Shown piece by piece: positions 3,751-56,238 of a stretch of DNA of 64,000 nucleotides. Source of the DNA: a virus (taxonomy: Duplodnaviria; Caudoviricetes). Each line of letters opens with the position of its first letter. Within the stretch, counting starts at the first letter, position 1. The stretch spans positions 26,634 through 90,633 of the IMG/VR virus record IMGVR_UViG_2772190736_000001. The stretch is one strand, 5' to 3'. Position numbers and translations under genes: made by a program. The notes below the pieces were generated by a model. That model had not been told where the DNA came from. It saw only the letters and a list, made by a program, of their open reading frames with translations, and did no database searches.

Positions 3751-3800
3751 TGTGATCAGCGTAGAGGCGGGGTGGCGGATCGTTCCCCCTGCTCCCCTGG
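3751..3800 (-). promoter_or_regulatory. Putative phage late promoter (lysis cassette)
   Basis: GGAGCAGGGGGA-N20-TACGCT-GATCACA; same architecture before scaffold, portal, PKS and terS. Confidence 0.65.
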
Positions 3801-8303: not shown

Positions 8304-11300
8304 CGGGTCGCCACTCCCCCTCTGCGTGCGCGGCGCTGCTGACGGTCGATCTCGGCGGCGATCTGGTGGGCGGTGGCGCCCGTACGGAGGGTGGAGACGT
8401 TGATGTTGGTGTCGCCGGTGCTGCCGGGCAGGACGACGATCTGCTGAGAGGAGCGGGCGTCGGTCAGGCCGACGCCCATGCGGCGGGCAGCTTCGCGCAG
8501 GACGGGCAGGGCGCGGGAGCGTTTGTGTGAGCCGAGGGGGATGTAGGCCTCGCCGCCGGTGGAGGGTTCAGCGAAGGTGACGGCGCCGGCGCGGGTGGAG
8601 TAGATGCCTTCGCGGATGCCGCCGTTGGCGTAGGCGAGGCCCCGGTTGGCTCGGGCGAGGTCGGCCAGGAACTTCGTCGAGCGGCTTCCGAGGGACTTCT
8701 TGATCTGTGCGGAGGCCTTGTTGGCGATGGTGATGATCTCGTCCTCGCCGAGACCGGTGGTGGCGGCGACGTCGTGGATGCCGATCCTGGACGTCTTTAC
8801 GGCAGCGATGATCTGCACGAGGGAGGCGAGCTCGTCCTGGCTGAGCTGCTTGTTGGCGGTCTTCGCGGAGTCGTTGGCGGCCGAGGCCTTCTTCTTGTCC
8901 TTCACCGCCTCGACGGCAAGCTTCTGCGCGGCTTCGTCGCCCTGCGCCGCGAGCATCGTGGCGAGGTCGCCGAAGCCCTGGGCGCTCAGGGTGGCGAGGT
9001 TCTGCTGGAAGGCGGCCGTGGTCTGATTGGAGCCGTTCAGCTGCTTGGTGAGGTCGGCGAGGGTGGCCTTGGCGAGCGGGCCGAGTTTGCGCAGGTTGGA
9101 GACGATCTCCCGGAACTGCTTGTTCGACGACTTGGCGAGCGCTGCGACCATCGCGGCGCCTTCTTCGCCGAGGTCGCGGAGCATGCCGATGATGTCGCCG
9201 CCGCCCCGGGCCGCGATCTTCTGCAGGTTCGACTCCCAGGCGCCGTTCGCGGAGATGGCGTCCTTGAGGGTCTTGGCCCAGTCGGTGAGGCTGAACTTCT
9301 GCCGGTAGCGGGTCTCGGCCTTGCTCGCGTTCTCGGTGGCGGTGGTGAGGGCGCGGCGGGCGGAGGCGACCTGCCGTTCGGCGGCCGCGAGCTGCGCGGC
9401 GGTGTGCTTCTTGCTGCGGACCTCGCGGAGTTTGGCCTCGGCGTCCCGCAGCCGGTCGACCGCGTCCGCGCGGGCCCGGATGGCCTTGTTGTAGTCCTCG
9501 CGGGTGATGGGCTGGTGTGTCTCGTCGTAGCGGGACTGCACGTCGCCGGCGCTGCGGCGCAGGGCGGTGGGGGTGTAGGAGAAGCCGCCGGACGCGAAGG
9601 CGTGGATGCCGCCGTTGGCGTTCCATACGATCGCGCGGGGGTCACCGCCCAGGCGCCGGATGGTCTCCTCGGCGATGGCGCGCGAGCGGGGCCGCTTGGA
9701 CGGGGCGAGGGGGATGTACGACTCGCCGCCGGTCTCGGGTTCGGCCCAGATGCGGTAGGTCGCGTGAGGCCGTGCGATCTGCGCGGTGTGCTTCTCCCGC
9801 ATGCCGCCGTCGGCGAAGGTCTCAGCGCCGGCCAGCACGTTGCCGTTCGCGTTGACGACGTTGCGGCTGGTCTGCTGGCGGTTGATGTGCTCGGTGATGC
9901 GTACGTCGCGAGTGGTGATGGTGATGGTGCGGTCCTGCAGCCGGTCGCGTGCTTCCTGCACGGCGCTGATCCCCGCGAGCGCGGTACCGGTCTGGGCGGT
10001 AACCCGGACCTGCCCGTTGGGGAGCTTCTCGGTCTTGTAGCCGAGCTGCTGGAGCAGGGAGATCGCTTCAGCGGTGATCGCCGAGACGACGACCGACTTG
10101 GTGCCCGGGGTCGCCTGGATCTTCTCGATGACCTGGTCGAGTCCCGCGAGGGCGTCCTCGCGGTCCATCTCGACCTTGGTCTCGGTGACGTCAGGGATGG
10201 TGATGATCTGCGCGGCCAGGAGCGCGGCCTGCTCTTTGGTCAGGCCCATGGCCCGCGCGGTGGCGATGAGGCTGGTCTGGCCGCGCCGGTAGATGTCATT
10301 GATCTGCGTCCACGGCGCGTCTGCTTCGCGGGCGGCGGCCGCGGCCTCGTCGGTCTTGGTGCCGAGTGTCTGCAGGGCGGCGGCGGCGTCGCGGGCCTTC
10401 TGGCTGTTCAGGTCGAGCTTGCCGCCGGTCATGGTGAGTGCGCCGGCGTTCTTCTTCGCGGCCTCGGCGGCGTCGTCGATGGCTTGCTCGAAGCCGATCA
10501 TGCCGCCGAGCGCGGCCCGGTTCACGTCATTGAGGGCCTGGATGGCATTCCTGAGCCCGTCGGCCGACTGCTTCTGGGCGTCCAGCTTGACCTTGGTGTC
10601 GAGGGCCTGCTGGCCGAAGACGCCCATGGACTGGGCGGCGAGTTGCTGCTCTGCCTTCAGGTTCTCGACGGCCGCCTGGTACTGCGGCATCAGGCCCTGG
10701 ACGTCCTTGAGGCTGTGGCCCTCCGCGCGGGCGGCTGCTGCGATCTTCTGGAAGTTCGCAGCGGCGAGCTCGGCGTGGCCGGACTGGACGAGCTGGGCCA
10801 TGGCCTCGTCGAGGCCGTTGAAGTCCTCTTCGAGCGCGTTGAGGGACTTCTCGCCCTGGGAGAGCTGGTCGAAGAAGGGCTTCGACTGGCGACGCAGGTC
10901 GTCGAACCAGTCAATGCCGATGGATCCCTCGTCGATGAACTTGTCGAGCTTGTGGCGGGCATAGGCGATCTGGCCCATTTTCTCGATGAGGCCGTCCATG
11001 TCGCCGAACGTCTTGCCCAGCTCGCCGGTGAACTGGGCGGCGACGCCGAGGTTCTTCAGCGACGTCGTGAGCTTGTCGACTTCCGGCGGCGCGCCCTTGG
11101 CTGCTTCGCCGATGGCGGTGACGCCGACCGCCACGAGCGCGAGGACCGCCAGGACGACGGAGGCCCTCTGCATGAGGGTGAGCTGCTGGGTGACGCCGGC
11201 GATGGCGGAGGCGACGCCGCCGAACCTGGCTGCGCGAACGAAGCGGCTGGTGTTGGCGGCGACCAAGGCCATGCCGGGCGCCATCGCTCCGAACGCCATT

Positions 11301-22407: not shown

Positions 22408-23325
22408 ATGAGACGCGGATGGAAAGAGCTGGCCGAACCCATCGAGCAGCTGTGCCGGGTTTTCGAGACCAGCGCGTCCGTGCATGAGGGATTCTCCTCA
22501 ACGTCCCGTGCCGCTGATGAGGCGCGAGACCGAACGCTCGATGGCCCCTGGGGCGCTCGTGTCACACGAGACGCAAACGTCACTGCTCAGGCCATTGCGG
22601 TGCTGATGATGGACAACCTGGGCTCGCTCGTCGACATCATCAACAGCCCGCGTGGGGTCTACTCGGGATTCACCATGACGCGCGCTGTGGTCGACTCTGC
22701 GACTGGGGCCTGGTACCTCATGGATCCGGAAATTGACGTCCGCGAACGAGTTCGTCGGTTCATGAACTTTCGCCTTGTCAGCTCTCACGAGCGCGGGCGG
22801 CTGCTCCCTGAGGAATGGGACGATCGCCGAGCCCGGATGATTCGCGAGGAGTCGCGCGAGGAGACCGAGAGGATCCTTCAGGGCGCCCGGCTGCACGGCT
22901 ACCAGGTGACGGCAGCGAGCGGCATGAGGGCCCCGTTTCTAGGGGACCGCCTGCCAAGCACGACTGCGTTGGCCAGCCAAGTCGTTCCCCGGGACAACCC
23001 TCTTGGACGAACGTCCTGGAAGCTCACCTCTGCAGTCACTCACGGGACTCTGTATGCCATCTCCATGGCTTTCGAGACGGTCGGCGTAAGCGAGGACCCT
23101 ACTCACGGCGATGTAGCCGTACGTCCTCGCCTCAGCCCTCGTAACGCTGCGGCACAGTTCTCCGCAGCGCCCTTGGCAGCGATCTCGACTCTGGTACGGC
23201 TGTACCGCCAGTTCGGTTGGGACATGCAGGAGCTGGTCCAAGCATCTGCCGCAGTGGAGGCGATGCTGTGGGAGTTCATGCGCGTTCTGTCTCCTCGGGA
23301 GACTCCAGCGACGTTTCGTCCGTGA
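22408..23325 (+). CDS. Moron: all-helical hypothetical protein (DUF5677/HEPN-like)
   Basis: 305 aa, antisense within head module, lower GC; R..VD..A..WY and LTSAVTHG motifs. Confidence 0.65.
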   Translation: MRRGWKELAEPIEQLCRVFETSASVHEGFSSTSRAADEARDRTLDGPWGARVTRDANVTAQAIAVLMMDNLGSLVDIINSPRGVYSGFTMTRAVVDSATGAWYLMDPEIDVRERVRRFMNFRLVSSHERGRLLPEEWDDRRARMIREESREETERILQGARLHGYQVTAASGMRAPFLGDRLPSTTALASQVVPRDNPLGRTSWKLTSAVTHGTLYAISMAFETVGVSEDPTHGDVAVRPRLSPRNAAAQFSAAPLAAISTLVRLYRQFGWDMQELVQASAAVEAMLWEFMRVLSPRETPATFRP

Positions 23326-25135
23326 CCGGGAGCTGGACGACAGGCGGGGCGGGGTCGGGGTTGATGTCGATGCCGAGGTAGGTGGCGACCGCGTCGGTGG
23401 AGCCAGTGGCGTCGGCGAGGTAGCGGGCCTGTTCGAAGCGGCGGGCCTGGATCTGGGCGATCTCGGTCTCGGCGTCGTCCATCGGCCAGCCTGCTTCGGC
23501 GAGGATCCTTACGGCGGTCTCGAGGGACATGACGCCGGCGGTGACGGCCTCGGAGACCTGGGTGAGGACGGCGGCCTTGTCGGTGGGGGTGTACGGGCCG
23601 AAGGAGAGCAGGGCCCGCTGGGTCTGGACGCCGGTCCAGTCGGGGTGCGCTCCGGCGAGGGACATGCGTTGGACGAACTTGAGGAGCAGGGCGTACTTGT
23701 GGGCGCGGGCGAGGCGCATGGAGCCGACGAGGGAGTCAAGCGGGCCGAGGGAGATCTCCAGGGCGTAGCCGGAGGGGACTTCGGAGGGGTTGACGGTGCC
23801 GAGGGTTACGGCGGGCAGGCGGGCGATCGTGGCGGCCCGTTCGGACAGGTCGGTGCGCTGGTTGCGGAGCTCGGCGAGCTGGGGGGAGGTGTCGACGGCG
23901 TCGAGGCGGCCGCCTTCGGGGAGCTCGAGGACGGTGCCGGGGGCGACGGCGAGTTCGCTGCGGCCGTTGGATCGTCCGCCGGAGAGCGCGATGATCGGGG
24001 AGCCGGTGGTGGCGGAGGCCTTTGCGGAGTCGGTGTCGGTGCCGGCCAGCTCGTCGAAGACCTGCAGCACCTTCGCCAGGCTGGATGTGCCCCAGTGCTC
24101 TTCGGCGTCGGGGACGGTGTTGGGGACGTGGATCACTGGGATGAAGTCGAGGTAGAGGTCGAGGTGGTCGAGGACTTCGCCGGTCGGGCCGGTGGCGTAC
24201 TGGGCCTTGTCCATGGGGAGGTTGTCGACGTCGTGGGGGGCTTTGAGGTCGCCGAGGTCCCAGGTGGCGTCGGTGAGGTAGCAGGTGACGTACGACGGGG
24301 TGTCGTTCCACAGGTACTGGCGGGCGATGAACCCGGACTCGGTGGGGATGTCGCCGCGGCCGAGGACCGGTTGGGCGGGGGCGTCGCCGTCGGTGTCGGT
24401 CATGACGGGGGCGCGGACGGGCCGGCCGGTGCGGTCGACGCCGGAGGCGGTGACGGGCCGGATCCAGTCGAGTTCGTAGGTGATGCGGCGCAGCCGCGCG
24501 GGCAGGCCGCGCTTCTTGTCTGCGGGAAGGTCCCAGGCGAGGTGGACGCGTTCGGGGTAGTCGGAGGCGTCGCCGTCTTCGGCGAGGACCGGGTAGTAGA
24601 AGCCGGGGTCGAACGCCTTGAGGCGCACCCTGCCCTTGTTGGGGTCCCAGGCCAGGAGGTAGACGCCGTCGCCGAGGGTCACGGCCTTGCGTTCGGTCTG
24701 GATCATCCGCATGGACAGGAGCTCGTCCTCGGCCCAGTCGCGCAGGAGGGTTTGGACGCGTTCGGCCATCGCCTGGTCGGTGTCGGGGGTGTCGGTGTCG
24801 GTCTGTTCGGCGCTGGGGACGACGATGGTCTGCTCGCGGCCGAGGACGTTGGCGAGGATGGTCTCGATGAACATGGACGGGTCGCCGAACTCGCGGCGGT
24901 CGCTGGCGGTGGGGTCGCGTAGCTGGGCGAGTTCGGCGGCCTGGTTGTTGGCGTAGGCGGCGAGGAGCTTGTAGGCGGCCAGGCGTCGCTCGTCGCCGGC
25001 CGGGACCCAGGAAGCGGCGGCTTCGGGGAAGGCGCGGCGGTGGGGCATGCCGAGGGTGTCGGAGTAGATGGGCTTGTAGTTTGCCCATCCCCAGGCGTCG
25101 ATGACGACGTCCTTGATGCCACTGAGCAGGCCCAC
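23276..25135 (-). CDS. Portal protein
   Basis: ~620 aa, LGDGVY, FIPVIHVPN, WG.S, PSGYAL motifs; first gene of head operon. Confidence 0.88.
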   Translation of the reverse strand: MGLLSGIKDVVIDAWGWANYKPIYSDTLGMPHRRAFPEAAASWVPAGDERRLAAYKLLAAYANNQAAELAQLRDPTASDRREFGDPSMFIETILANVLGREQTIVVPSAEQTDTDTPDTDQAMAERVQTLLRDWAEDELLSMRMIQTERKAVTLGDGVYLLAWDPNKGRVRLKAFDPGFYYPVLAEDGDASDYPERVHLAWDLPADKKRGLPARLRRITYELDWIRPVTASGVDRTGRPVRAPVMTDTDGDAPAQPVLGRGDIPTESGFIARQYLWNDTPSYVTCYLTDATWDLGDLKAPHDVDNLPMDKAQYATGPTGEVLDHLDLYLDFIPVIHVPNTVPDAEEHWGTSSLAKVLQVFDELAGTDTDSAKASATTGSPIIALSGGRSNGRSELAVAPGTVLELPEGGRLDAVDTSPQLAELRNQRTDLSERAATIARLPAVTLGTVNPSEVPSGYALEISLGPLDSLVGSMRLARAHKYALLLKFVQRMSLAGAHPDWTGVQTQRALLSFGPYTPTDKAAVLTQVSEAVTAGVMSLETAVRILAEAGWPMDDAETEIAQIQARRFEQARYLADATGSTDAVATYLGIDINPDPAPPVVQLPVTDETSLESPEETERA

Positions 25136-25152
25136 GGGGCGCACCTTTCCGG

Positions 25153-25208
25153 TGTCGGGCCCCGCGCCTTGTGATCAGCGTACGGCTACACGCCGCTGGC
25201 ACTCCCCC
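25153..25208 (-). promoter_or_regulatory. Putative late promoter and conserved leader (portal)
   Basis: GGGGGA-N20-TACGCT-GATCAC-AAGGCGCGGGGCCCGACA. Confidence 0.65.
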
Positions 25209-26100
25209 GGGCTCGCTCCAGAGCCTTGCGGTACTTGCGGAGCCGGTTGTTCTGGTACCAGTCGAAGCGCCGGATGGTGAAGGAGTCTCTCCACCCGGCG
25301 ATCCTGCTGTGTACGAGCTGCATGCGCGGATCGAGGAGCCGGGTCTGGTCCTGATCGGGTCCGAAGGAGTTACCGAAGAGCGATGCGTCTCCGGCCTCGC
25401 GGAAGAACGCGGTGCCCACGAGGACAGTGTTGATGCGGGCAACCGACCGGAATGCCTTGTGCTCGGCATCGGTCATCCCCTTCTCCACGTTGATCGGGGG
25501 CATGGGTTCGTAGCCGATGTCGTTGACGCCGACGTACCAGGTCCGGTAGCCGCCCGGGTTGCCGAAGTAGAAGGACTCGATGTAGGTGAAGCGACGGGCC
25601 CCAATCCAGGGCCAAAAGTCGTCTGGCTCCGGCATCGCACCAATGCGGGTTTTACCGAGTTTCACCAGGGTGTTTCCGACGAGAAGTCGGGGGCGGAACC
25701 ACCGGCTGGTGGTGGTGATGCCGTAGATCTCAACAGTGCTCTCGGTCGACCAGGTGACCAGATAGCCGAACCGACCGAGCTTCCACGTCCGCTTGGTGAG
25801 TTCTACCTCCAGGTCCTTGTCGGGCACCGGGTTCTCGGGCTGGTACCGGTGGACCGTGCACGGGGAGACCCACGTCGGCTCGCCAAAGAGCTCCTGCATG
25901 TAGTCCGGGCTGACCCAGGGGGCGACCTTCCGGACCCGAGATATGACGTGGCGGCGTCGTCCGAGGGTGCTGCGCCAACCGGCCGCCGCCGTCTTCATCA
26001 GGGTGAGGGTGGCAACGATGGTGGCGGCAAGGGTCCACACGTTCAAGGTGGTGCTGTACCAAGGCTGATCAGCTACGGGCATGGCGGAAGCATGCAACAC
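25186..26100 (-). CDS. Moron: membrane-anchored hypothetical protein (possibly ETEC_3214-like)
   Basis: N-terminal TM helix, YIESFYFGNPGGY...GVNDIG motif, lower GC. Confidence 0.65.
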   Translation of the reverse strand: MLHASAMPVADQPWYSTTLNVWTLAATIVATLTLMKTAAAGWRSTLGRRRHVISRVRKVAPWVSPDYMQELFGEPTWVSPCTVHRYQPENPVPDKDLEVELTKRTWKLGRFGYLVTWSTESTVEIYGITTTSRWFRPRLLVGNTLVKLGKTRIGAMPEPDDFWPWIGARRFTYIESFYFGNPGGYRTWYVGVNDIGYEPMPPINVEKGMTDAEHKAFRSVARINTVLVGTAFFREAGDASLFGNSFGPDQDQTRLLDPRMQLVHSRIAGWRDSFTIRRFDWYQNNRLRKYRKALERARGSASGV

Positions 26101-26337
26101 AGCGCGGCTGCGCGGTACGGCATTTGACAGGGCTCATCGGCTCTACGCTCCCGAAGCTGCCACGAAGTGACAAGTAGCTCTCTGTAATCGCGCTTGACCT
26201 GCGGTGATGCTGTGGTACCTGGTGCCGACTTCACGGCGAAGGCAACACGCTGACATCGGATCAGCGCGTTGACCTGCAAGGTTCTCGAAGCTCCGGATTC
26301 GTGAACTCACCGCATGGCCCGGTACTCCCGAAGGTGT

Positions 26338-26368
26338 CGCCCGCCCCGTGTGTTGCCCGGGGCGGGCG
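26338..26368 (-). terminator. Stem-loop after PKS
   Basis: CGCCCGCCCCG-N9-CGGGGCGGGCG. Confidence 0.6.
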
Positions 26369-26386
26369 CGGCTGCTCGGTGGACCT

Positions 26387-27460
26387 TCAGGTGGTGTGCC
26401 AGGTGCCGCGGAGGGCGGCGGTGGTGAATCCGGGGCCGTAGGCGACGACCACGCCGGCGGCGCCATCCTCGGGCGGGTCGGCGTAGGTGCGCTCGAGGAC
26501 GCGGAGGATCGATACGCCGCCGAGGTTGCCTTCTTCGGTGAGGGTGGCGGTGGAGTGGCGGGTGTCGACGTCGTCGAGGCCGAGGGCGCGTGCGGTGTCG
26601 GTGATGATGCGGGGGCTGCCGGGATGGATCGCGGCCCAGTCGACGCTCTGGTCGGGGCCGATCCAGTCGAGGACGGTGGGCAGGACGTCGTCGGCGGCGG
26701 TGAGGGCTTCCTTCGTGGAGTCGAAGTGGAAGCCGTCGGTTCCGATGCGGCCGCTGTAGCGGTCGACGCTGCCGGGCAGGACGTATTCGAGGGTGTCGTC
26801 GGGGCCGGCGATGTGGAGGCCGGGGCCGAGGGGCTGGTCGGAGACGATGCAGGCGGCGGCGGAGTCGCCGAACAGAGCCTTGTAGATCATCGCCTCGATC
26901 GAGGTGTCGTTGTGGTTGTAGACGCTCGAGATGATCTCGGCGGCGATGACGAGGACCTTGGAGCCGGGTCGGGCGGCGATGAGGTCGACGGCGCGGGTGA
27001 GGGCCTGGGTGCCGCCGGCGCAGGCCATGGTGGTCAGGGCGATCCGGCGGACGGTCGGTCTGAGGCCGAGGGCGGCTATGAGGTGGATGTCGAGGTTGGG
27101 GACGGACCAGCCGGTGGAGTGGGTGGTGATGATCGCGTCGATGTCCGGATAGCTGCCGGGGTCGGGTCCGGGCGTGAGGCCGGCGGCGGCAAGGGCCTGC
27201 TGGGCGGCGTTGGTGGCCAGGGCCAGGGCGTCGGTGAAGGCGGCGGTGGAGCGTTCCTCGATGGTGGCGTCGCCGGACACGGTGGCGGCGGTGAGCGGCC
27301 GGCTGAAGTAGCGGGTCTGCACGCCGAGGTTCCCGATGACGCGGGGTATGACGCGCAGCTGCGGGTGGTCGGGGTGGCGGCCGGCGATGTCGTCGATGAT
27401 TTCGCTGGTCGTCACCTTGTGGGTGGGCAGGGTTGTGATGGGGCGGGAGATGTAGGGCAC
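26387..27460 (-). CDS. Type III polyketide synthase (RppA/PhlD-like)
   Basis: Intact triad: MACAGG (Cys), AIHPGS (His), EGNLGG (Asn); ALFGDS, YGPGF; GGAGG RBS before GTG 27460. Confidence 0.93.
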   Translation of the reverse strand: MPYISRPITTLPTHKVTTSEIIDDIAGRHPDHPQLRVIPRVIGNLGVQTRYFSRPLTAATVSGDATIEERSTAAFTDALALATNAAQQALAAAGLTPGPDPGSYPDIDAIITTHSTGWSVPNLDIHLIAALGLRPTVRRIALTTMACAGGTQALTRAVDLIAARPGSKVLVIAAEIISSVYNHNDTSIEAMIYKALFGDSAAACIVSDQPLGPGLHIAGPDDTLEYVLPGSVDRYSGRIGTDGFHFDSTKEALTAADDVLPTVLDWIGPDQSVDWAAIHPGSPRIITDTARALGLDDVDTRHSTATLTEEGNLGGVSILRVLERTYADPPEDGAAGVVVAYGPGFTTAALRGTWHTT

Positions 27461-27509
27461 GTGGTCCTCCGGCACGGTGGCGGTCGTCGTGGGGGTGCGG
27501 AGTGGGGGT

Positions 27510-27550
27510 GCGGTCAACGTACACACATGCGGCGGAGTTGGTCCCCCCTG
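27510..27550 (-). promoter_or_regulatory. Late-type promoter upstream of PKS
   Basis: CAGGGGGGA-N20-TACGTT-GAC, same spacing as structural-gene promoters. Confidence 0.6.
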
Positions 27551-27559
27551 ACCTGCGGC

Positions 27560-28396
27560 TCAGGTGGTCCGGCGGGCGCGGAGCATGGGCAGTCTGGTGT
27601 GCTGCTTCTTCTGCCCGGGGTGGTAGATGAGGACGATCAGACGAGCTCCTGGGGCGCCGAGGGGCATGGCTGCGCACATGGTGACGTGCCCGGGGCCTTG
27701 GAGGGCGTGGTGTATGGGGCGTTCGTCGCCGTCGGGGTGGATGTGGGCGCCGCCGGATTCCCAGAGGGGTGCGAGATCGGGGTCGGCGCGGGCGTCTTCC
27801 GCGATTTTGAGGAGGGTTTCGTCTTCGGGGCGGAGGGCGAGCGCGGCGCGGAGCTGGGGCAGGACGAGGGGGGCCCAGACTGCTTTCCAGTCGGTGAGCA
27901 TGGTGCGGCCGCGGGGGTCGAGGAGCATCCAGCGCATCGTGTTGGCGGGGACGTGGCTGTCGGGGAAGAGGTCGGCGAAGGCGGCGTTGTGGGCTATGAG
28001 GTTCCAGGAGGCGTCGTTGACGTAGGCGGGGTGGGCGATGCCGTCGACGGCTTCCTGCCAGACGCCGGGGATCTCGAGGCCGGAGGACGGGTTGAGGGGG
28101 TAGGGCGGGTCACCGATGCCGGCGTACCTGCACAGGCAGCCCCACTCCTGCTCGTTGAGGCCGAAGAGGCGGCCGACCTGCTCGAGGTAGTCGACCGGGG
28201 GGTTGGGGTAGCGGCCCGATTCGAGGCGGTAGTACGTGTTGGCGGCGCGGCCGGTGAGTTCGTCGACCTGCTGCTGAGAGAGGCCGGCGGCGCGGCGGCC
28301 TTGACGGCTGGGCCGGGTGAGGCCGTGGTCTTCCGGTTCGATGAGATCGCGGCGCTCGGAGAGGAGCGCCTTGAGGGCCTTGCGGTTCATCTTCAT
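27560..28396 (-). CDS. MmyB/MltR-family regulator (XRE HTH plus PAS-like ligand-binding domain)
   Basis: RR..I.P...GL....GRR..GLSQQQV, YYRLESGR, PAYV.D..WN..AHN, N..RW...DP motifs. Confidence 0.9.
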   Translation of the reverse strand: MKMNRKALKALLSERRDLIEPEDHGLTRPSRQGRRAAGLSQQQVDELTGRAANTYYRLESGRYPNPPVDYLEQVGRLFGLNEQEWGCLCRYAGIGDPPYPLNPSSGLEIPGVWQEAVDGIAHPAYVNDASWNLIAHNAAFADLFPDSHVPANTMRWMLLDPRGRTMLTDWKAVWAPLVLPQLRAALALRPEDETLLKIAEDARADPDLAPLWESGGAHIHPDGDERPIHHALQGPGHVTMCAAMPLGAPGARLIVLIYHPGQKKQHTRLPMLRARRTT

Positions 28397-28442
28397 CGTT
28401 GCCTTTCCCCCGTGTACCGTGCACGCGTGCCCTGGGAGTGTA

Positions 28443-28469
28443 TTTATTGGTGCGCCGTTTCGTAATAAA
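28443..28469. promoter_or_regulatory. AT-rich inverted repeat, candidate operator
   Basis: TTTATT-N15-AATAAA upstream of the MmyB-like gene. Confidence 0.4.
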
Positions 28470-28895
28470 AACTGCGCGTGGATTTCTGTCGGTTGAACGG
28501 TGAAGCTGTGCCCTGTGGGCGCGCTGACCTGCCGGGAAGCGGGGTAGGGCGGCCACACTGCAACACCCCAGGACGGTCCTGCGAGCGGCGGATACGCAAT
28601 CCGTCAAATCGCCTTGTGGGAAAGTCCTGTTGCCCTCGTCGGGCTCCGGCAGGGGCGTTGCCGGACGGTGCTGTATTCCGTGCTTCGGTGCGGATTTCGC
28701 AGCTCGGCACCGTTCCGGTTCGCCTTGCCGGGGCTTTGAGGGCCCCTAGAGCTACGGTCGGCGTCGACAATCGCCCCGATGCCGCGTCCTCGGTGCCGAC
28801 CGTGAAGTACGGGTCAGGTGGCGCTTCCCCCGGCGCCCTCTGGCCAGCCGAGAAGGCCCCGGACGGTCACTCCACCCCCGTTCGGGGCCTTCGGT

Positions 28896-29228
28896 CTACC
28901 CGCCTTCGGATTCCGTGTCGTCGTCGACGAGCGCGTGCTCGGCGTGCGGGTAGCCGCAGGCGCCGGCGCCGAAGTAGCGGGCCTGGCACGGTCCGGGGCC
29001 TTCGTAGGTGTGGTGGGTGATCAGCCGGTGCTGGCCCTCCTCCTTCCGGACCGCGGCCATCACGTCCTTGGCGAGCGTCTCCGCCCATCCCCCGGGGACC
29101 ATGGGCTGACCGGCTGGCCAGGTCAGCTTCTGCACCTGCTCGAGGACGGCCCTGTACCGAGGGTCCTTGCGGGCGTCGGCTCGGGCTCCGGGGTTGAAGT
29201 CGGTGAGGGCGGGTTCTGCGTCGGCCAC
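28896..29228 (-). CDS. Hypothetical phage protein
   Basis: 110 aa, AGGAGG RBS, C-terminal H/C cluster. Confidence 0.65.
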   Translation of the reverse strand: MADAEPALTDFNPGARADARKDPRYRAVLEQVQKLTWPAGQPMVPGGWAETLAKDVMAAVRKEEGQHRLITHHTYEGPGPCQARYFGAGACGYPHAEHALVDDDTESEGG

Positions 29229-29362
29229 AGGGCCTCCTGGTCGTAGGGCGGGCAGGTCCAGTCGAGGGCGATGGCGATCTGGCCATCGAGCGGGGCCGGC
29301 GTCGGGGCGGTGAGCTGCTGCTCCAGGGCGCCGAGGCGGGCGCGGGTCTCAGGCGTCGTCAC
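29123..29362 (-). CDS. Hypothetical phage protein
   Basis: GAGGA RBS; PLDGQ motif; 3' end overlaps next gene. Confidence 0.45.
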   Translation of the reverse strand: MTTPETRARLGALEQQLTAPTPAPLDGQIAIALDWTCPPYDQEALWPTQNPPSPTSTPEPEPTPARTLGTGPSSSRCRS

Positions 29363-29371
29363 CTGCTGTCC

Positions 29372-30064
29372 TCAGATCAGGGCGAGGGCGGACCGCTGAA
29401 CGGTTTCCCCATGGGAGGCGATCAGGCGGAGCTTCGGGAACGACTTGACCGGCTCCTGCCCGGGAACAGCGGGCCACTCGTCGGCGGACAGTCCGTACCC
29501 CGGCGGTCCCCAGCCTGAGTCGAACAGGATGTGCTTCGCGGCCTTCCGGTACTTCGGCTCCCAGTCCCAGGTGAAGAACAGCGGCAGGAGACCGCCGCGG
29601 TTCGGAATGGGTTCCGGTGCCACGGTGCAGCTGTGCCTGGCGCGCTTGTAGATCGGCGTGGCGTACTCGCGGCAGCGTTGGCGGTTGCAGAAGCCCCAGT
29701 GTCGAGACCAGCCGGTGACCGGGTCCCGTTCGCTGAAGCCGTGGACGGTGTTGCGTCCGCAGAGCCGGTCGACGCGGACCATGGGGGCCTGGCATCCGTT
29801 CGGGGTCTGGTCGTGGAGCTTGGAGTCGTAGCGGGGGACGTCGTCGGCGAGGTGGCGCCACATCTGCTCGTTGGTGGCGTTGAGGACTTCGCGGGTGCGG
29901 GTCCAGGTGGTGATCGTGGGGTCGTGGCGGCGGAGGTCCCGGAGACCGACCCAGCCGAGGGCGAGGATGAGGTCGCGGGTGCCGGTGGGCATGCGGCGCT
30001 CGGTGTAGACGCGAGCGAGGAGCTGGTCGTAGCGGGCGAGCGCGTTCTTGTCGTCGATGCTCAC
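29372..30064 (-). CDS. Hypothetical Cys-containing phage protein
   Basis: 230 aa, GAGG RBS, several Cys pairs. Confidence 0.7.
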   Translation of the reverse strand: MSIDDKNALARYDQLLARVYTERRMPTGTRDLILALGWVGLRDLRRHDPTITTWTRTREVLNATNEQMWRHLADDVPRYDSKLHDQTPNGCQAPMVRVDRLCGRNTVHGFSERDPVTGWSRHWGFCNRQRCREYATPIYKRARHSCTVAPEPIPNRGGLLPLFFTWDWEPKYRKAAKHILFDSGWGPPGYGLSADEWPAVPGQEPVKSFPKLRLIASHGETVQRSALALI

Positions 30065-33547: not shown

Positions 33548-34129
33548 TCAGGCTGCGGGGGTGGTACGGGAGCGCGGGCGTTCGGTCGACAGGACCGCCC
33601 ACACCCGGCGGCCGTCCTCGGAAGCATCTGTGCCGCAGCTGGCGGTGCCAGGGACTGCGGCGAGGTCGGACAGGATCGTCTGGTCGGGTTCGCCGCCGGT
33701 GTGGCTGAGGACGACGACGAGCAGCATGCCGTCCTGGTCGGCGAGATGGACGCTGATCCGCCGGCCGTCGTCGGCGGTGGCCGCGCCGACGAGGATGCGC
33801 ACGGTCCGCTCGAGGACATCGTCGGTGGGGTGGGCGTACCCCCAGGCGCGGACGGTCTCGAGGACCTTCGTGACGGCCTGGGTCCCGGTCCATGGGTAGG
33901 CGGTCAGTGCCCAGTTCGCGGCGCGCCGGTCTCTGATGGCCATGCGCGGCCGGCGAGTCTCGAGGCGGGCCTGACGGGGCCCGGGGAGCGGGAGTGTCGA
34001 GGTGACGGGCTTGGTCGACGGCTGCGGCCGCGGGGCCTCGACGGGCTTCTTCTGCGGGGGCGGGGTGCGGGGCGGGTAGGTCGGCGGCACCTTCGGGCCC
34101 TTGTCGTTCATGGGCAGCGGATCGGTCAC
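33548..34129 (-). CDS. Hypothetical protein, degenerate HATPase/anti-sigma-like fold
   Basis: C-terminal SCGTD....GRRVWAVL resembles RsbW-like proteins; start uncertain. Confidence 0.55.
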   Translation of the reverse strand: MTDPLPMNDKGPKVPPTYPPRTPPPQKKPVEAPRPQPSTKPVTSTLPLPGPRQARLETRRPRMAIRDRRAANWALTAYPWTGTQAVTKVLETVRAWGYAHPTDDVLERTVRILVGAATADDGRRISVHLADQDGMLLVVVLSHTGGEPDQTILSDLAAVPGTASCGTDASEDGRRVWAVLSTERPRSRTTPAA

Positions 34130-54131: not shown

Positions 54132-54695
54132 GTGCCAGTCTCGAAAGCCCGGCAAGCAGAGATCGCACAGCGGCGCAGCCAGATGCTCATCATGAAGATC
54201 CAGGGCCGCACCGCAGCCCAGATCGCAGAGCACTTCGACATCTCACCCGCCACCGCGCGCTCCGACCTCTCCCGCGCTATCAAGAAGGCCCGCCGCCTCG
54301 AGGTCCAAGACGCCGAGCTCTACCGCTTCGTCCAGGGCTCCCGCCTCGAACACCTCCTGCGCGCGGTCTGGCCCGCCGCAACAGGTGCTCCCGGACCCGA
54401 CGGAGAACTTGTAGTCGACCTCAAGGCGAGCGAGCAGGCCCGCAAGCTAATCGTCGACATCAGCGACCTGTTCGGGCTCAAGGTCCCCGTGCGTACCGAG
54501 ATCAGCGGCCCTGACGGCGGAGACATCCCCTTCTCCAGCGGCGAGACCGCCGAAGTCATGGCCCTCATCGCCATCTCCGACCGGGACAACGCGGAGATCC
54601 CCGCCATCGACCCCGAAGCCGACTTCGACGACGAAGAAGACGAGGACGACGCCCCCGACGACGAGGACGAGGACGACGATGACGACGGCGCCTGA
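54132..54695 (+). CDS. terS: Terminase small subunit
   Basis: N-terminal HTH, EISGPDGG motif, acidic tail, overlaps terL. Confidence 0.82.
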   Translation: MPVSKARQAEIAQRRSQMLIMKIQGRTAAQIAEHFDISPATARSDLSRAIKKARRLEVQDAELYRFVQGSRLEHLLRAVWPAATGAPGPDGELVVDLKASEQARKLIVDISDLFGLKVPVRTEISGPDGGDIPFSSGETAEVMALIAISDRDNAEIPAIDPEADFDDEEDEDDAPDDEDEDDDDDGA

Positions 54696-56238
54696 CCTCC
54701 AGCCTGGCATCGAAGCGCACTACCGGTCCCTGCCTGCTGCCCAGCGCCGCAGGGTCATCGCCCGCGCCCGGCCCGAGACCCGGATCAAGCTGGCGCGGAT
54801 CGAGCGGCAGATGGCCATGGACCGCTCCCCGGGCGCACTCGCCGCAGTCCTCACAGGAGGCCGGGAGAAGCAGGCCCCCCACCTGGACATGATTGACAGT
54901 GCGTTCCGGCGGATCGCAGCCGGCGAACGCCTCCAGGTGATGCTGACGTGTCCCCCCCGACACGGGAAGTCGCAGCGCGCCTCCCGCTGGGGTCCCCTCT
55001 GGTACCTCCGCCGCCACCCTGAGCACCGTGTCATGATCGCTTGCTACGGCGCCGACCTCGCCGACGACCACGGCCGATGGGTCCGTGACCAGCTCAAGGA
55101 GTACTCACCCGCCCTCGGCATCAAGCTGCACCCCGCCTCCCACGCCGCTAACCGTTTCGACCTCGAACAGCGGCGCGGCTCCAGCGTCCGCGGCGGCATG
55201 GTCACCGCCGGCGTCGGCGGCGGCCTCACCGGCAAGGGCTTCAACCTCGGCATCATCGACGACCCGTTCAAGGGCCACGACGACGCCTCCAGCCCGGCCC
55301 AGCGTGAGCGCGTCTGGGAGTGGTACCGGTCGGTGTTCTTCACCCGCCGCGCGCCCGCCGCCTCCCTCATTTTGATCAACACGCGCTGGCACGAGGACGA
55401 CCTGTCCGGTCGGCTCCTCAAGCACGAACCCCACCGATGGCTGCAGATCGACCTACCCGCCCTCGCCGACAACCCCAGCGACCCCCTCCACCGCCCCATC
55501 GGCGCCCCCCTGTGGCCAGAGCAGTACGACGCGGCCGAGCTCGCCGACATCCGCGAGTCCGTCGGTGAACGCGTTTGGTACGCCTTGTACCAGCAGAAGC
55601 CCCGACCGCTCGAAGGCGGCGTGTGGAAGTGGGCATGGATCACCAACCACCGCCTCGACCTCGAAGCCTGGCCCGGCATTAGCCCGACCCGGATCGTCGT
55701 CGCTGTCGACCACGCCGGCGGCGACGCCATGCGCAACGACGAAGTCGGCCTCGTCTGCGCCGCCAAGGATGCCGAAGGCCACATGTACGTCCTGGACGAC
55801 CGGTCCCGCACCATGGGCGCCGACACCTGGGGCACCGAGGTCTGCCGCCTCGCGATCGAACGCCAAGCCGACGCGATCATCGTGGAGAACAACTTCGGCG
55901 GCGACATGGCCAAGCAGGTCGTCTCCCAAGCGTGGCGGGAGCTCGAGCGCGAAGGCGGTACCCAGCGCATGCTGATGCCTTCGGTCATCGAGGTGAACGC
56001 CAAGCAGGGCAAACGCTTGAGGGCCGAGCCGATTGCCCAGCTGTACCGCCAGGGCCGCATCCACCACGTCGGCGAGTTCACCGAGCTCGAAGGCCAGATG
56101 GTCACCTGGCTGCCTGGCATGGACTCTCCCGACCGTATGGATGCCGCAGTGCACGCCTTGACCGAACTCGCCGATCCGGCGGCCGTCGCCACGGGCAGCG
56201 GTTCGTACAACGACCAGCGGCTCGCGGGACGCCGCTGA
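54679..56238 (+). CDS. terL: Terminase large subunit
   Basis: PPRHGKS, IIDDP, TRWHEDD, LYQQ.P, VEN, SPDRMDA. Confidence 0.95.
   Translation: MTTAPDLQPGIEAHYRSLPAAQRRRVIARARPETRIKLARIERQMAMDRSPGALAAVLTGGREKQAPHLDMIDSAFRRIAAGERLQVMLTCPPRHGKSQRASRWGPLWYLRRHPEHRVMIACYGADLADDHGRWVRDQLKEYSPALGIKLHPASHAANRFDLEQRRGSSVRGGMVTAGVGGGLTGKGFNLGIIDDPFKGHDDASSPAQRERVWEWYRSVFFTRRAPAASLILINTRWHEDDLSGRLLKHEPHRWLQIDLPALADNPSDPLHRPIGAPLWPEQYDAAELADIRESVGERVWYALYQQKPRPLEGGVWKWAWITNHRLDLEAWPGISPTRIVVAVDHAGGDAMRNDEVGLVCAAKDAEGHMYVLDDRSRTMGADTWGTEVCRLAIERQADAIIVENNFGGDMAKQVVSQAWRELEREGGTQRMLMPSVIEVNAKQGKRLRAEPIAQLYRQGRIHHVGEFTELEGQMVTWLPGMDSPDRMDAAVHALTELADPAAVATGSGSYNDQRLAGRR

Follow-up and report, generated by a model that had tools for sequence, protein, structure and literature searches.

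A polyketide synthase (PKS) gene of type III and the gene of an XRE-type regulator of the MmyB/MltR family lie side by side on the minus strand of a 64,000-nucleotide stretch of viral DNA, positions 26,634 to 90,633 of the IMG/VR record IMGVR_UViG_2772190736_000001, which we refer to as the window. Read in the direction of transcription, an upstream hairpin is followed by the regulator promoter region, the regulator, a 99-nucleotide gap that holds a promoter-like element, the PKS and a second hairpin (Table 1). Downstream of the pair come a gene with an ETEC_3214 domain and then the portal gene, and upstream are small genes without an assigned family; Pfam and NCBIfam scans found no tailoring or export families among these adjoining genes. 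The original prediction, made from the letters of the window, had described an intact type III PKS directly downstream of an MmyB/MltR-family regulator, forming a two-gene unit without adjacent tailoring or export genes, and the domains, the catalytic triad, the same-strand adjacency and the neighbour scans all agree with that description. The terminator that it ascribed to the unit is the perfect inverted repeat past the PKS, one of the GC-rich hairpins that flank the pair on both sides in a repeat search; a simple promoter and terminator scan of positions 25000-29500 that required a T-run returned 0 sites. The longest PKS reading frame is 26387-27526(-), but homologues and PGAP starts point to the GTG at 27460 as the likelier start. 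A k-mer search of the regulator–PKS gap against the parent contig gave no useful match.

Table 1. Elements of the two-gene cassette and positions of a recurrent promoter-like pattern in the window
Feature	Position	Strand	Remarks
Upstream hairpin	28852-28892	-	15-nt arms, 93% complementary; just past the stop of gene 28896-29228 (repeat search); putative terminator-like upstream boundary of the cassette, closing the preceding operon
Predicted regulator promoter region	28437-28471	-	AT-rich dyad, -35-like and -10 hexamers; function inferred
vioB-like regulator	27560-28396	-	278 aa; XRE helix–turn–helix and MmyB/MltR PAS-like ligand-binding domain
Predicted PKS promoter-like element	27516-27549	-	AGGGGGG box (27549-27543), 21 nt, TACGTT (27521-27516); function inferred
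vioA-like type III PKS	26387-27460	-	357 aa; longest open reading frame starts at 27526
Downstream hairpin	26338-26368	-	Perfect 11-bp GC-rich inverted repeat, 9-nt loop, 19 nt past the PKS stop; putative terminator-like downstream boundary of the cassette
GGGGG-N21-TACGYT site	3758-3789	-	Before lysis genes
GGGGG-N21-TACGYT site	25177-25208	-	Before portal
GGGGG-N21-TACGYT site	27516-27547	-	Before PKS

The PKS and regulator proteins

The PKS scores above the 27-bit Pfam cut-off for both halves of the enzyme (Chal_sti_synt_N, 73.5 bits, 2.3e-20; Chal_sti_synt_C, 29.1 bits, 1.2e-6). Its catalytic triad of Cys147, His279 and Asn312 (357-residue numbering) aligns with the corresponding Cys, His and Asn in THNS (1u0m) and is invariant in all 27 aligned orthologues. 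On these domains and this triad the protein is classed as a type III PKS of the chalcone synthase superfamily. THNS 1u0m is also its best solved relative (6e-45), followed by germicidin synthase, Gcs (3v7i, 2.6e-36). Neither protein of the pair has an NCBIfam equivalog, the best match being DpgA with 87 bits against a cut-off of 425.

Pfam places HTH_31 (9.4e-10) and MLTR_LBD (7.9e-21) domains in the regulator, and an AlphaFold2 model of the protein (pLDDT 90.4) has MltR (3pxp) as its top fold match, with an E value of 3e-11 over 281 columns. The two proteins share an XRE helix–turn–helix (HTH) and a PAS-like ligand-binding domain (PF17765), whereas identity over the fold alignment is just 18%. 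A phmmer search of the regulator against solved structures gave no match, a sequence profile matched 3pxp weakly and in the HTH region only (E 0.0018), and the Pfam score is the lowest of the seven MmyB/MltR-family members in the host. By its domains and predicted fold, the regulator belongs to the MmyB/MltR family.

Relationship to the violapyrone cassette

We consider it probable that, in the pair, a circular phage-plasmid of the pZL12 type and of about 90.5 kb has a copy of the vioB–vioA violapyrone cassette as accessory cargo. In Streptomyces somaliensis SCSIO ZH66, vioA is located on a circular plasmid of ~85 kb; knock-out of vioA is reported to abolish violapyrone B and knock-out of vioB to cause an about eightfold rise, and flanking open reading frames proved dispensable in knock-outs, so that the vio cluster consists of vioA and vioB alone (PMC4924298). 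The products of VioA are described in the vio papers as 3-methyl-4-hydroxy-6-alkyl-alpha-pyrones (PMC4924298, PMC5898002). According to Table 1 of PMC4924298, VioA (350 residues) is 95% identical to pCQ3.110c and VioB is 95% identical to pCQ4.19c. The window PKS matches pCQ3.110c (WP_012840496.1) at 230 of 349 aligned residues (65.9%) and the window regulator matches pCQ4.19c (WP_015060958.1) at 169 of 273 (61.9%), and through these two proxies we take the pair to be the vioBA orthologue. Judged on sequence, the pair is an orthologue of an already characterised cassette and not a new kind of system.

Phylogeny and active-site residues point in the same direction. A PKS that is 94.8% identical to pCQ3.110c (L061) shares one 30-row clade with the window PKS (SH-aLRT 99). 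Taking the numbering of pCQ3.110c as that of VioA (both have 350 residues), the VioA triad C141/H273/N306 corresponds to C147/H279/N312 of the window PKS, and the residues probed in VioA, I174, L190, Y229 and S242, correspond to V180, L196, Y235 and S248. Mutagenesis of VioA is reported to have shown that I174, Y229 and S242 matter for activity (PMC5898002); at these three tested positions the window enzyme has identical residues in Y235 and S248 and a conservative change in V180. Both systems consist of an XRE regulator and a type III PKS of ~350 residues without tailoring genes, on circular plasmids of ~85-90 kb of the pCQ3/pCQ4/pZL12 kind. The window copy differs in belonging to a separate 5-row phage-plasmid sub-clade (SH-aLRT 99) and in its position directly upstream of the portal operon.

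VioA has been grouped with Cpz6, DpyA and Gcs, and 21 further vioAB loci, mostly plasmid-borne, are reported (PMC5898002). Cpz6, the presulficidin synthase of the caprazamycin cluster, and Gcs, whose structure is the second-best solved relative of the window PKS, are alkyl-pyrone-forming bacterial type III PKSs grouped with VioA (PMC5898002). The 53% identity to Cpz6 is a figure for VioA and not for the window PKS (PMC4924298). Cpz6 differs in that it acts within a large cluster, making a sulfate carrier.

An older annotation offers a different product. On pZL12, the PKS gene of the pair, pZL12.100, is annotated as 'similar to RppA', and the first rank of THNS 1u0m among solved relatives would fit an RppA-type tetrahydroxynaphthalene pigment synthase. 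We regard this assignment as very improbable. Of 401 Streptomyces genomes, the host's own included, 345 gave a match, and most of the genomes covered carry separate type III PKSs just 31-35% identical to that of the window; the host itself has such a separate enzyme at 32% identity. No P450 or other tetrahydroxynaphthalene-tailoring gene adjoins the pair, and in S. somaliensis the THNS-like PksIII-1 is reported to be a different gene, the deletion of which left violapyrone unaffected (PMC4924298).

The replicon and its phage-plasmid relatives

The window belongs to a contig, C27, of 90,633 bp with a GC content of 0.696, against ~0.72 in the larger contigs. The ends of C27 overlap by 85 bp, and we therefore take it to be circular. 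Many of its genes have homologues in pZL12, including those for portal (65%), large terminase (68%) and tape measure (48%) as well as capsid-region and integrase-like genes; the comparison of the two gene sets gave no match to pZL12 ParAB. On its circularity and these homologous genes we regard C27 as a pZL12-like phage-plasmid. The related pZL12 (GQ919031), also a phage-plasmid of ~90 kb, carries the same regulator and PKS pair as pZL12.99/pZL12.100, 64.5% and 66% identical to the window pair. There the pair lies ~25 kb from the portal gene, and terminase and portal are adjacent, whereas in the window the pair abuts the portal operon.

The pair is not novel as such, since pZL12.99/.100 and the PKS of pSLE1 were annotated before. 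The PKSs on pSLE1 and pZL12 were noted as lying outside any cluster, with no product named (PMC4487206), and type III PKS genes on plasmid prophages had also been noted, with the product unnamed, in PMC10023795.

Three further observations concern the phage genes around the pair. The window portal (23276-25144, minus strand) and large terminase (54679-56238, plus strand) are ~29 kb apart on opposite strands; a contig of another species (G139:C21) and CP042280 share this layout, unlike pZL12, which makes it an inversion or rearrangement specific to this lineage. Between PKS and portal, a gene at 25186-26100 (minus strand) encodes a protein of 304 residues that lacks a Pfam match but has an ETEC_3214 domain by NCBIfam (NF043066, 1.1e-39); it is kept at 67% identity in G139:C21 and has no counterpart in pZL12. 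The gene preceding the large terminase (54132-54695, plus strand) has a weak Sigma70_r4_2 match of 32 bits, one of two weak matches in a sigma-factor search of C27 with PF08281; because this gene directly precedes the large terminase, the match probably reflects the HTH of a small terminase.

Distribution and selection of the cassette

The linkage of PKS and MmyB-type regulator to phages, which the original prediction supposed, was recovered in phage, viral and plasmid records. Among 50,697 phage records the sole phage with a match was ZL12, present as two accessions of one genome. The PKS is present on 28 viral contigs of IMG/VR; at three the locus is cut by the contig edge, and the regulator lies upstream in 25 of the 25 that can be evaluated. 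Four IMG/VR contigs, of which three or four come from metagenomes to judge by their names, have a terminase within 6 kb of the cassette. In PLSDB, 34 plasmids carry a portal homologue, all but one of 85-94 kb and the other of 152 kb. Twenty-six of these 34, pCQ3 and pCQ4 included, are among the 40 PKS carriers listed, and the remaining eight are absent from these 40 and from the 60 regulator matches listed. Of the 40 plasmid records among the PKS matches listed, 35 have the regulator immediately upstream on the same strand. The vio cassette is a common cargo of Streptomyces phage-plasmids of the pZL12/pCQ3 type.

A PKS orthologue of at least 47% identity is present in 30 of 400 other Streptomyces species genomes. 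We analysed 30 species loci, 29 of other species together with that of the window, and found the regulator directly upstream of the PKS on the same strand in all 30, with every PKS frame and every regulator frame open. For PKS and regulator alike, each of the 10 pairs compared has a ratio of nonsynonymous to synonymous substitution (dN/dS) below 1.

Flanks of ±10 kb were taken for 20 of the species loci. Genes beyond the pair are shared with C27 in two of them, G139:C21 (90,021 bp) and G369:C32 (99,867 bp), and the other 18 share only the pair; their contigs range from 56 kb to 7.9 Mb, with four above 7 Mb. The neighbours that were scanned (10 genes from three of the 18 loci) belong to ordinary families, namely GNAT, Gfo/Idh/MocA, TetR, MFS and SDR, and on a 578-kb linear plasmid the cassette lies among the same sort of ordinary genes. 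Of the 400 genomes, 42 have a portal homologue, and it shares a contig with the PKS in two of the 30 genomes with an orthologue, namely at G139:C21 and G369:C32.

In a PKS tree of 49 rows, where context labels were set by the size of the contig, the genes in common and the portal search (leaving nine rows unlabelled), phage-plasmid and other copies are interleaved, and the label needs at least four changes on well-supported branches. The closest relatives of the window PKS, at 75-80% identity, are on phage-plasmid-like replicons. The original prediction had been set against the case in which the closest homologues lie in ordinary chromosomal clusters, and that case is half realised: 18 of the 20 flanked loci have nothing but the pair in common with C27, but the nearest relatives are on phage-plasmid-like replicons. 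The cassette is a mobile unit shared by phage-plasmids, large linear plasmids and large contigs, several of them chromosome-sized.

This distribution bears directly on the proposal, made in the original prediction, that the pair gives the phage a chemical signal analogous to arbitrium. In such an autoinducer circuit, the alkyl-pyrone made by the PKS would be the ligand of the adjacent regulator, would rise with carrier density and would be tied, through the regulator or a shared promoter class, to induction, lysis or transfer. A synthase and a ligand-binding regulator that remain inseparable as a two-gene unit, without export or tailoring genes, are what such a circuit would look like; the solved MltR held a fatty acid in its PAS-like pocket, and MmyB is described as answering alkyl-furan signals (PMC3406030). 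A more distant relative also adjoins an ScbR-family gene. However, the signal would have to be phage-specific, and this part of the claim is not borne out, as most flanked loci have just the pair in common with C27 and lie amid ordinary genes, the PKS and a portal homologue rarely share a contig in other species, and the two kinds of copy are interleaved in the tree. Orthologue alignments show family-wide conservation of the catalytic residues, of most residues of the cavity and of many in the regulator, unlike the diversified signals of arbitrium, and close homologues of the regulator (61-63% identity) occur without a PKS.

Promoter-like elements of the cassette

Upstream of the regulator, there are an AT-rich dyad GTTT-N8-AAAC (28471-28456) and a -35-like TTACGA (28465-28460), followed after a 17-nt spacer by a -10 hexamer TACACT (28442-28437). 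Other copies, on phage-plasmids and elsewhere, likewise have the AT-rich element and a hexamer of the form TAGACT/TACACT ahead of the regulator. A strict AT-rich inverted repeat with 5-nt arms was found in 13 of 47 loci and in 0 of 235 control windows from coding sequence, a weak control given the GC-richness of these windows. Of 47 loci, 40 have a TAnnnT hexamer 41-63 nt upstream of the PKS start, and a conserved cAGGGGnAA box lies ~21 nt upstream of the hexamer, both in phage-plasmid copies and in non-phage ones.

The element before the PKS has likenesses elsewhere on the replicon. The pattern GGGGG-N21-TACGYT occurs three times in the window against 0.04 expected, a comparison that is post hoc, as two of these sites had already been seen when the pattern was drawn up. 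Related sites stand in front of the pZL12 lysis genes and the G139:C21 portal, and positions with a GGGGG(A)-N21-TACG(C/T)T element include 33763-33794 of pZL12 (L005) and 11158-11189 of another locus (L037). From these resemblances a promoter class shared by the PKS, portal and lysis genes is plausible, and the GGGGG(A)-N21-TACG(C/T)T element may represent a late promoter class of these phage-plasmids.

Sites of one pattern before the lysis genes, the portal and the PKS, with similar pairs of sites in pZL12 and G139:C21, would suit an autoinducer circuit. The post hoc origin of the pattern counts against this use of it, as do scans that did not rise above shuffled sequence. In a fixed-register position-weight scan trained on the other loci, the window's own site scored 9.3, the best other site 14.4 and shuffles 9.1-15.4; a two-block scan with variable spacer gave eight matches of at least 11 against 12-32 in shuffles, which does not exceed chance. 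The ECF-type pattern GG[AG]A[CGT]-N16-CGTA had two matches in C27, where a Markov model gives a mean of 2.23. The motif upstream of the portal is also found in pSAM1, in an S. janthinus plasmid and in NBC_01353; because pSAM1 and the S. janthinus plasmid are not among the pair carriers listed, the portal motif appears to be independent of the regulator, and control of the portal or lysis genes by the window regulator is not indicated. Arbitrium-like signalling by the pair is thereby weakened, and taking the distribution and the promoter scans together we consider the autoinducer circuit unlikely.

A narrower version confines the signal to the phage-plasmid copies. In these, the vio cassette would have been recruited to the late-gene programme, with a PKS promoter in the portal/lysis class and a VioB-like protein that senses the pyrone, and lipophilic pyrone released by induced or dense carrier populations would feed back on nearby carriers, for induction, transfer or exclusion. 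If true, this would be the first small-molecule, non-peptide signal in phage communication; we hold it to be more doubtful still.

Proposed working and role of the cassette

As a copy of the vio cassette, the pair would work much as its characterised relative does. By analogy with VioA, the PKS would condense fatty-acid-derived beta-ketoacyl starters with methylmalonyl-CoA and release 3-methyl-4-hydroxy-6-alkyl-alpha-pyrones or close analogues, for which a tailoring enzyme would be unnecessary. The XRE/MmyB-family protein would be the cassette's own transcription factor, holding the synthase low as VioB does. Relief of repression would probably come from a hydrophobic ligand in the PAS-like pocket, whether substrate, product or another compound, as suggested by the fatty acid held by MltR (PMC3406030). 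Each gene is preceded by a conserved promoter-like element of its own, and the hairpins would insulate the unit. The most likely role of the cassette is to benefit the cell that carries it, a lipophilic pyrone with mild antibacterial action being one example, and not to act as a phage-specific signal.

A rival reading is a chemical weapon or shield, in which pyrones would act against competing bacteria or superinfecting phages as a lysogenic-conversion trait. Violapyrones are reported to be active against methicillin-resistant Staphylococcus aureus with a best minimal inhibitory concentration of 25 ug/mL (PMC4924298), and the cassette is frequent on phage-plasmids, as the overlap of portal-positive plasmids with the PKS carriers listed indicates. 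The reported activity is weak, however, and actinobacterial prophages are described in PMC10023795 as being without biosynthetic gene clusters for known anti-phage molecules. As the neighbour family scans also found no resistance or export genes nearby, we think a weapon or shield improbable. To our knowledge, there is no anti-phage test of violapyrones.

Several points weigh against reading the pair as a vio cassette carried as cargo. The orthology runs through pCQ3.110c and pCQ4.19c, proxies that are stated to be 95% identical to VioA and VioB (PMC4924298). At 62-66% identity, and with the substrate-pocket difference I174 to V180, the product spectrum may differ, as it may because two other cavity positions of the PKS vary across the family. 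MmyB is described as an activator (PMC3406030), whereas VioB, the orthologue of the window regulator, is reported to act negatively (PMC4924298), and the sign of regulation in the window may differ accordingly. Among the 10 pairs, dN/dS of the PKS is highest, at 0.70, between the window copy and its nearest relative, a crude estimate because a GC content of ~0.93 at third codon positions (GC3) depresses dS. The promoter-like element of the PKS resembles those of the portal and lysis genes, which could mean co-expression with late genes, something that plain cargo does not lead one to expect.

Recognition of the pair as a probable vio cassette joins two literatures that do not cite each other, that on vioAB violapyrone chemistry, where the genes are 'plasmid-situated', and that on phage-plasmids with an orphan type III PKS. 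The words 'phage' and 'MmyB' have 0 occurrences in PMC4924298 and PMC5898002, and we found no literature linking 'MmyB' with 'type III polyketide synthase'. For natural-product mining, the connection means that 'orphan' type III PKS genes of phages probably make alkyl-pyrones; for phage biology, it raises the modest question of why these phage-plasmids so often carry the cassette.

Variant forms of the cassette

Several loci depart from the two-gene arrangement. At L070 (NZ_CP108821.1) and L071 (NZ_CP108098.1), with PKSs of 44-48% identity, a metallo-beta-lactamase-fold hydrolase gene stands between those of the regulator and the PKS, and there is a divergent fabG; the cluster may exist here in an older or extended form. 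At L042, L069 and five further loci of a non-phage-plasmid clade, a GNAT acetyltransferase gene lies 62-82 nt past the PKS on the same strand, and in the L042/L069 clade it may be a third member of the cassette. Regulators 61-63% identical to that of the window are found without a PKS on the linear plasmids of L073 (NZ_CP108296.1) and L074 (NZ_CP109039.1), where they are followed by an open reading frame of 76 residues, with parAB nearby. Three genomes carry two or three diverged PKS copies, 47-69% identical to that of the window: G274 (C13, C18 and C16), G143 (C2 and C1) and G167 (C5 and C84).

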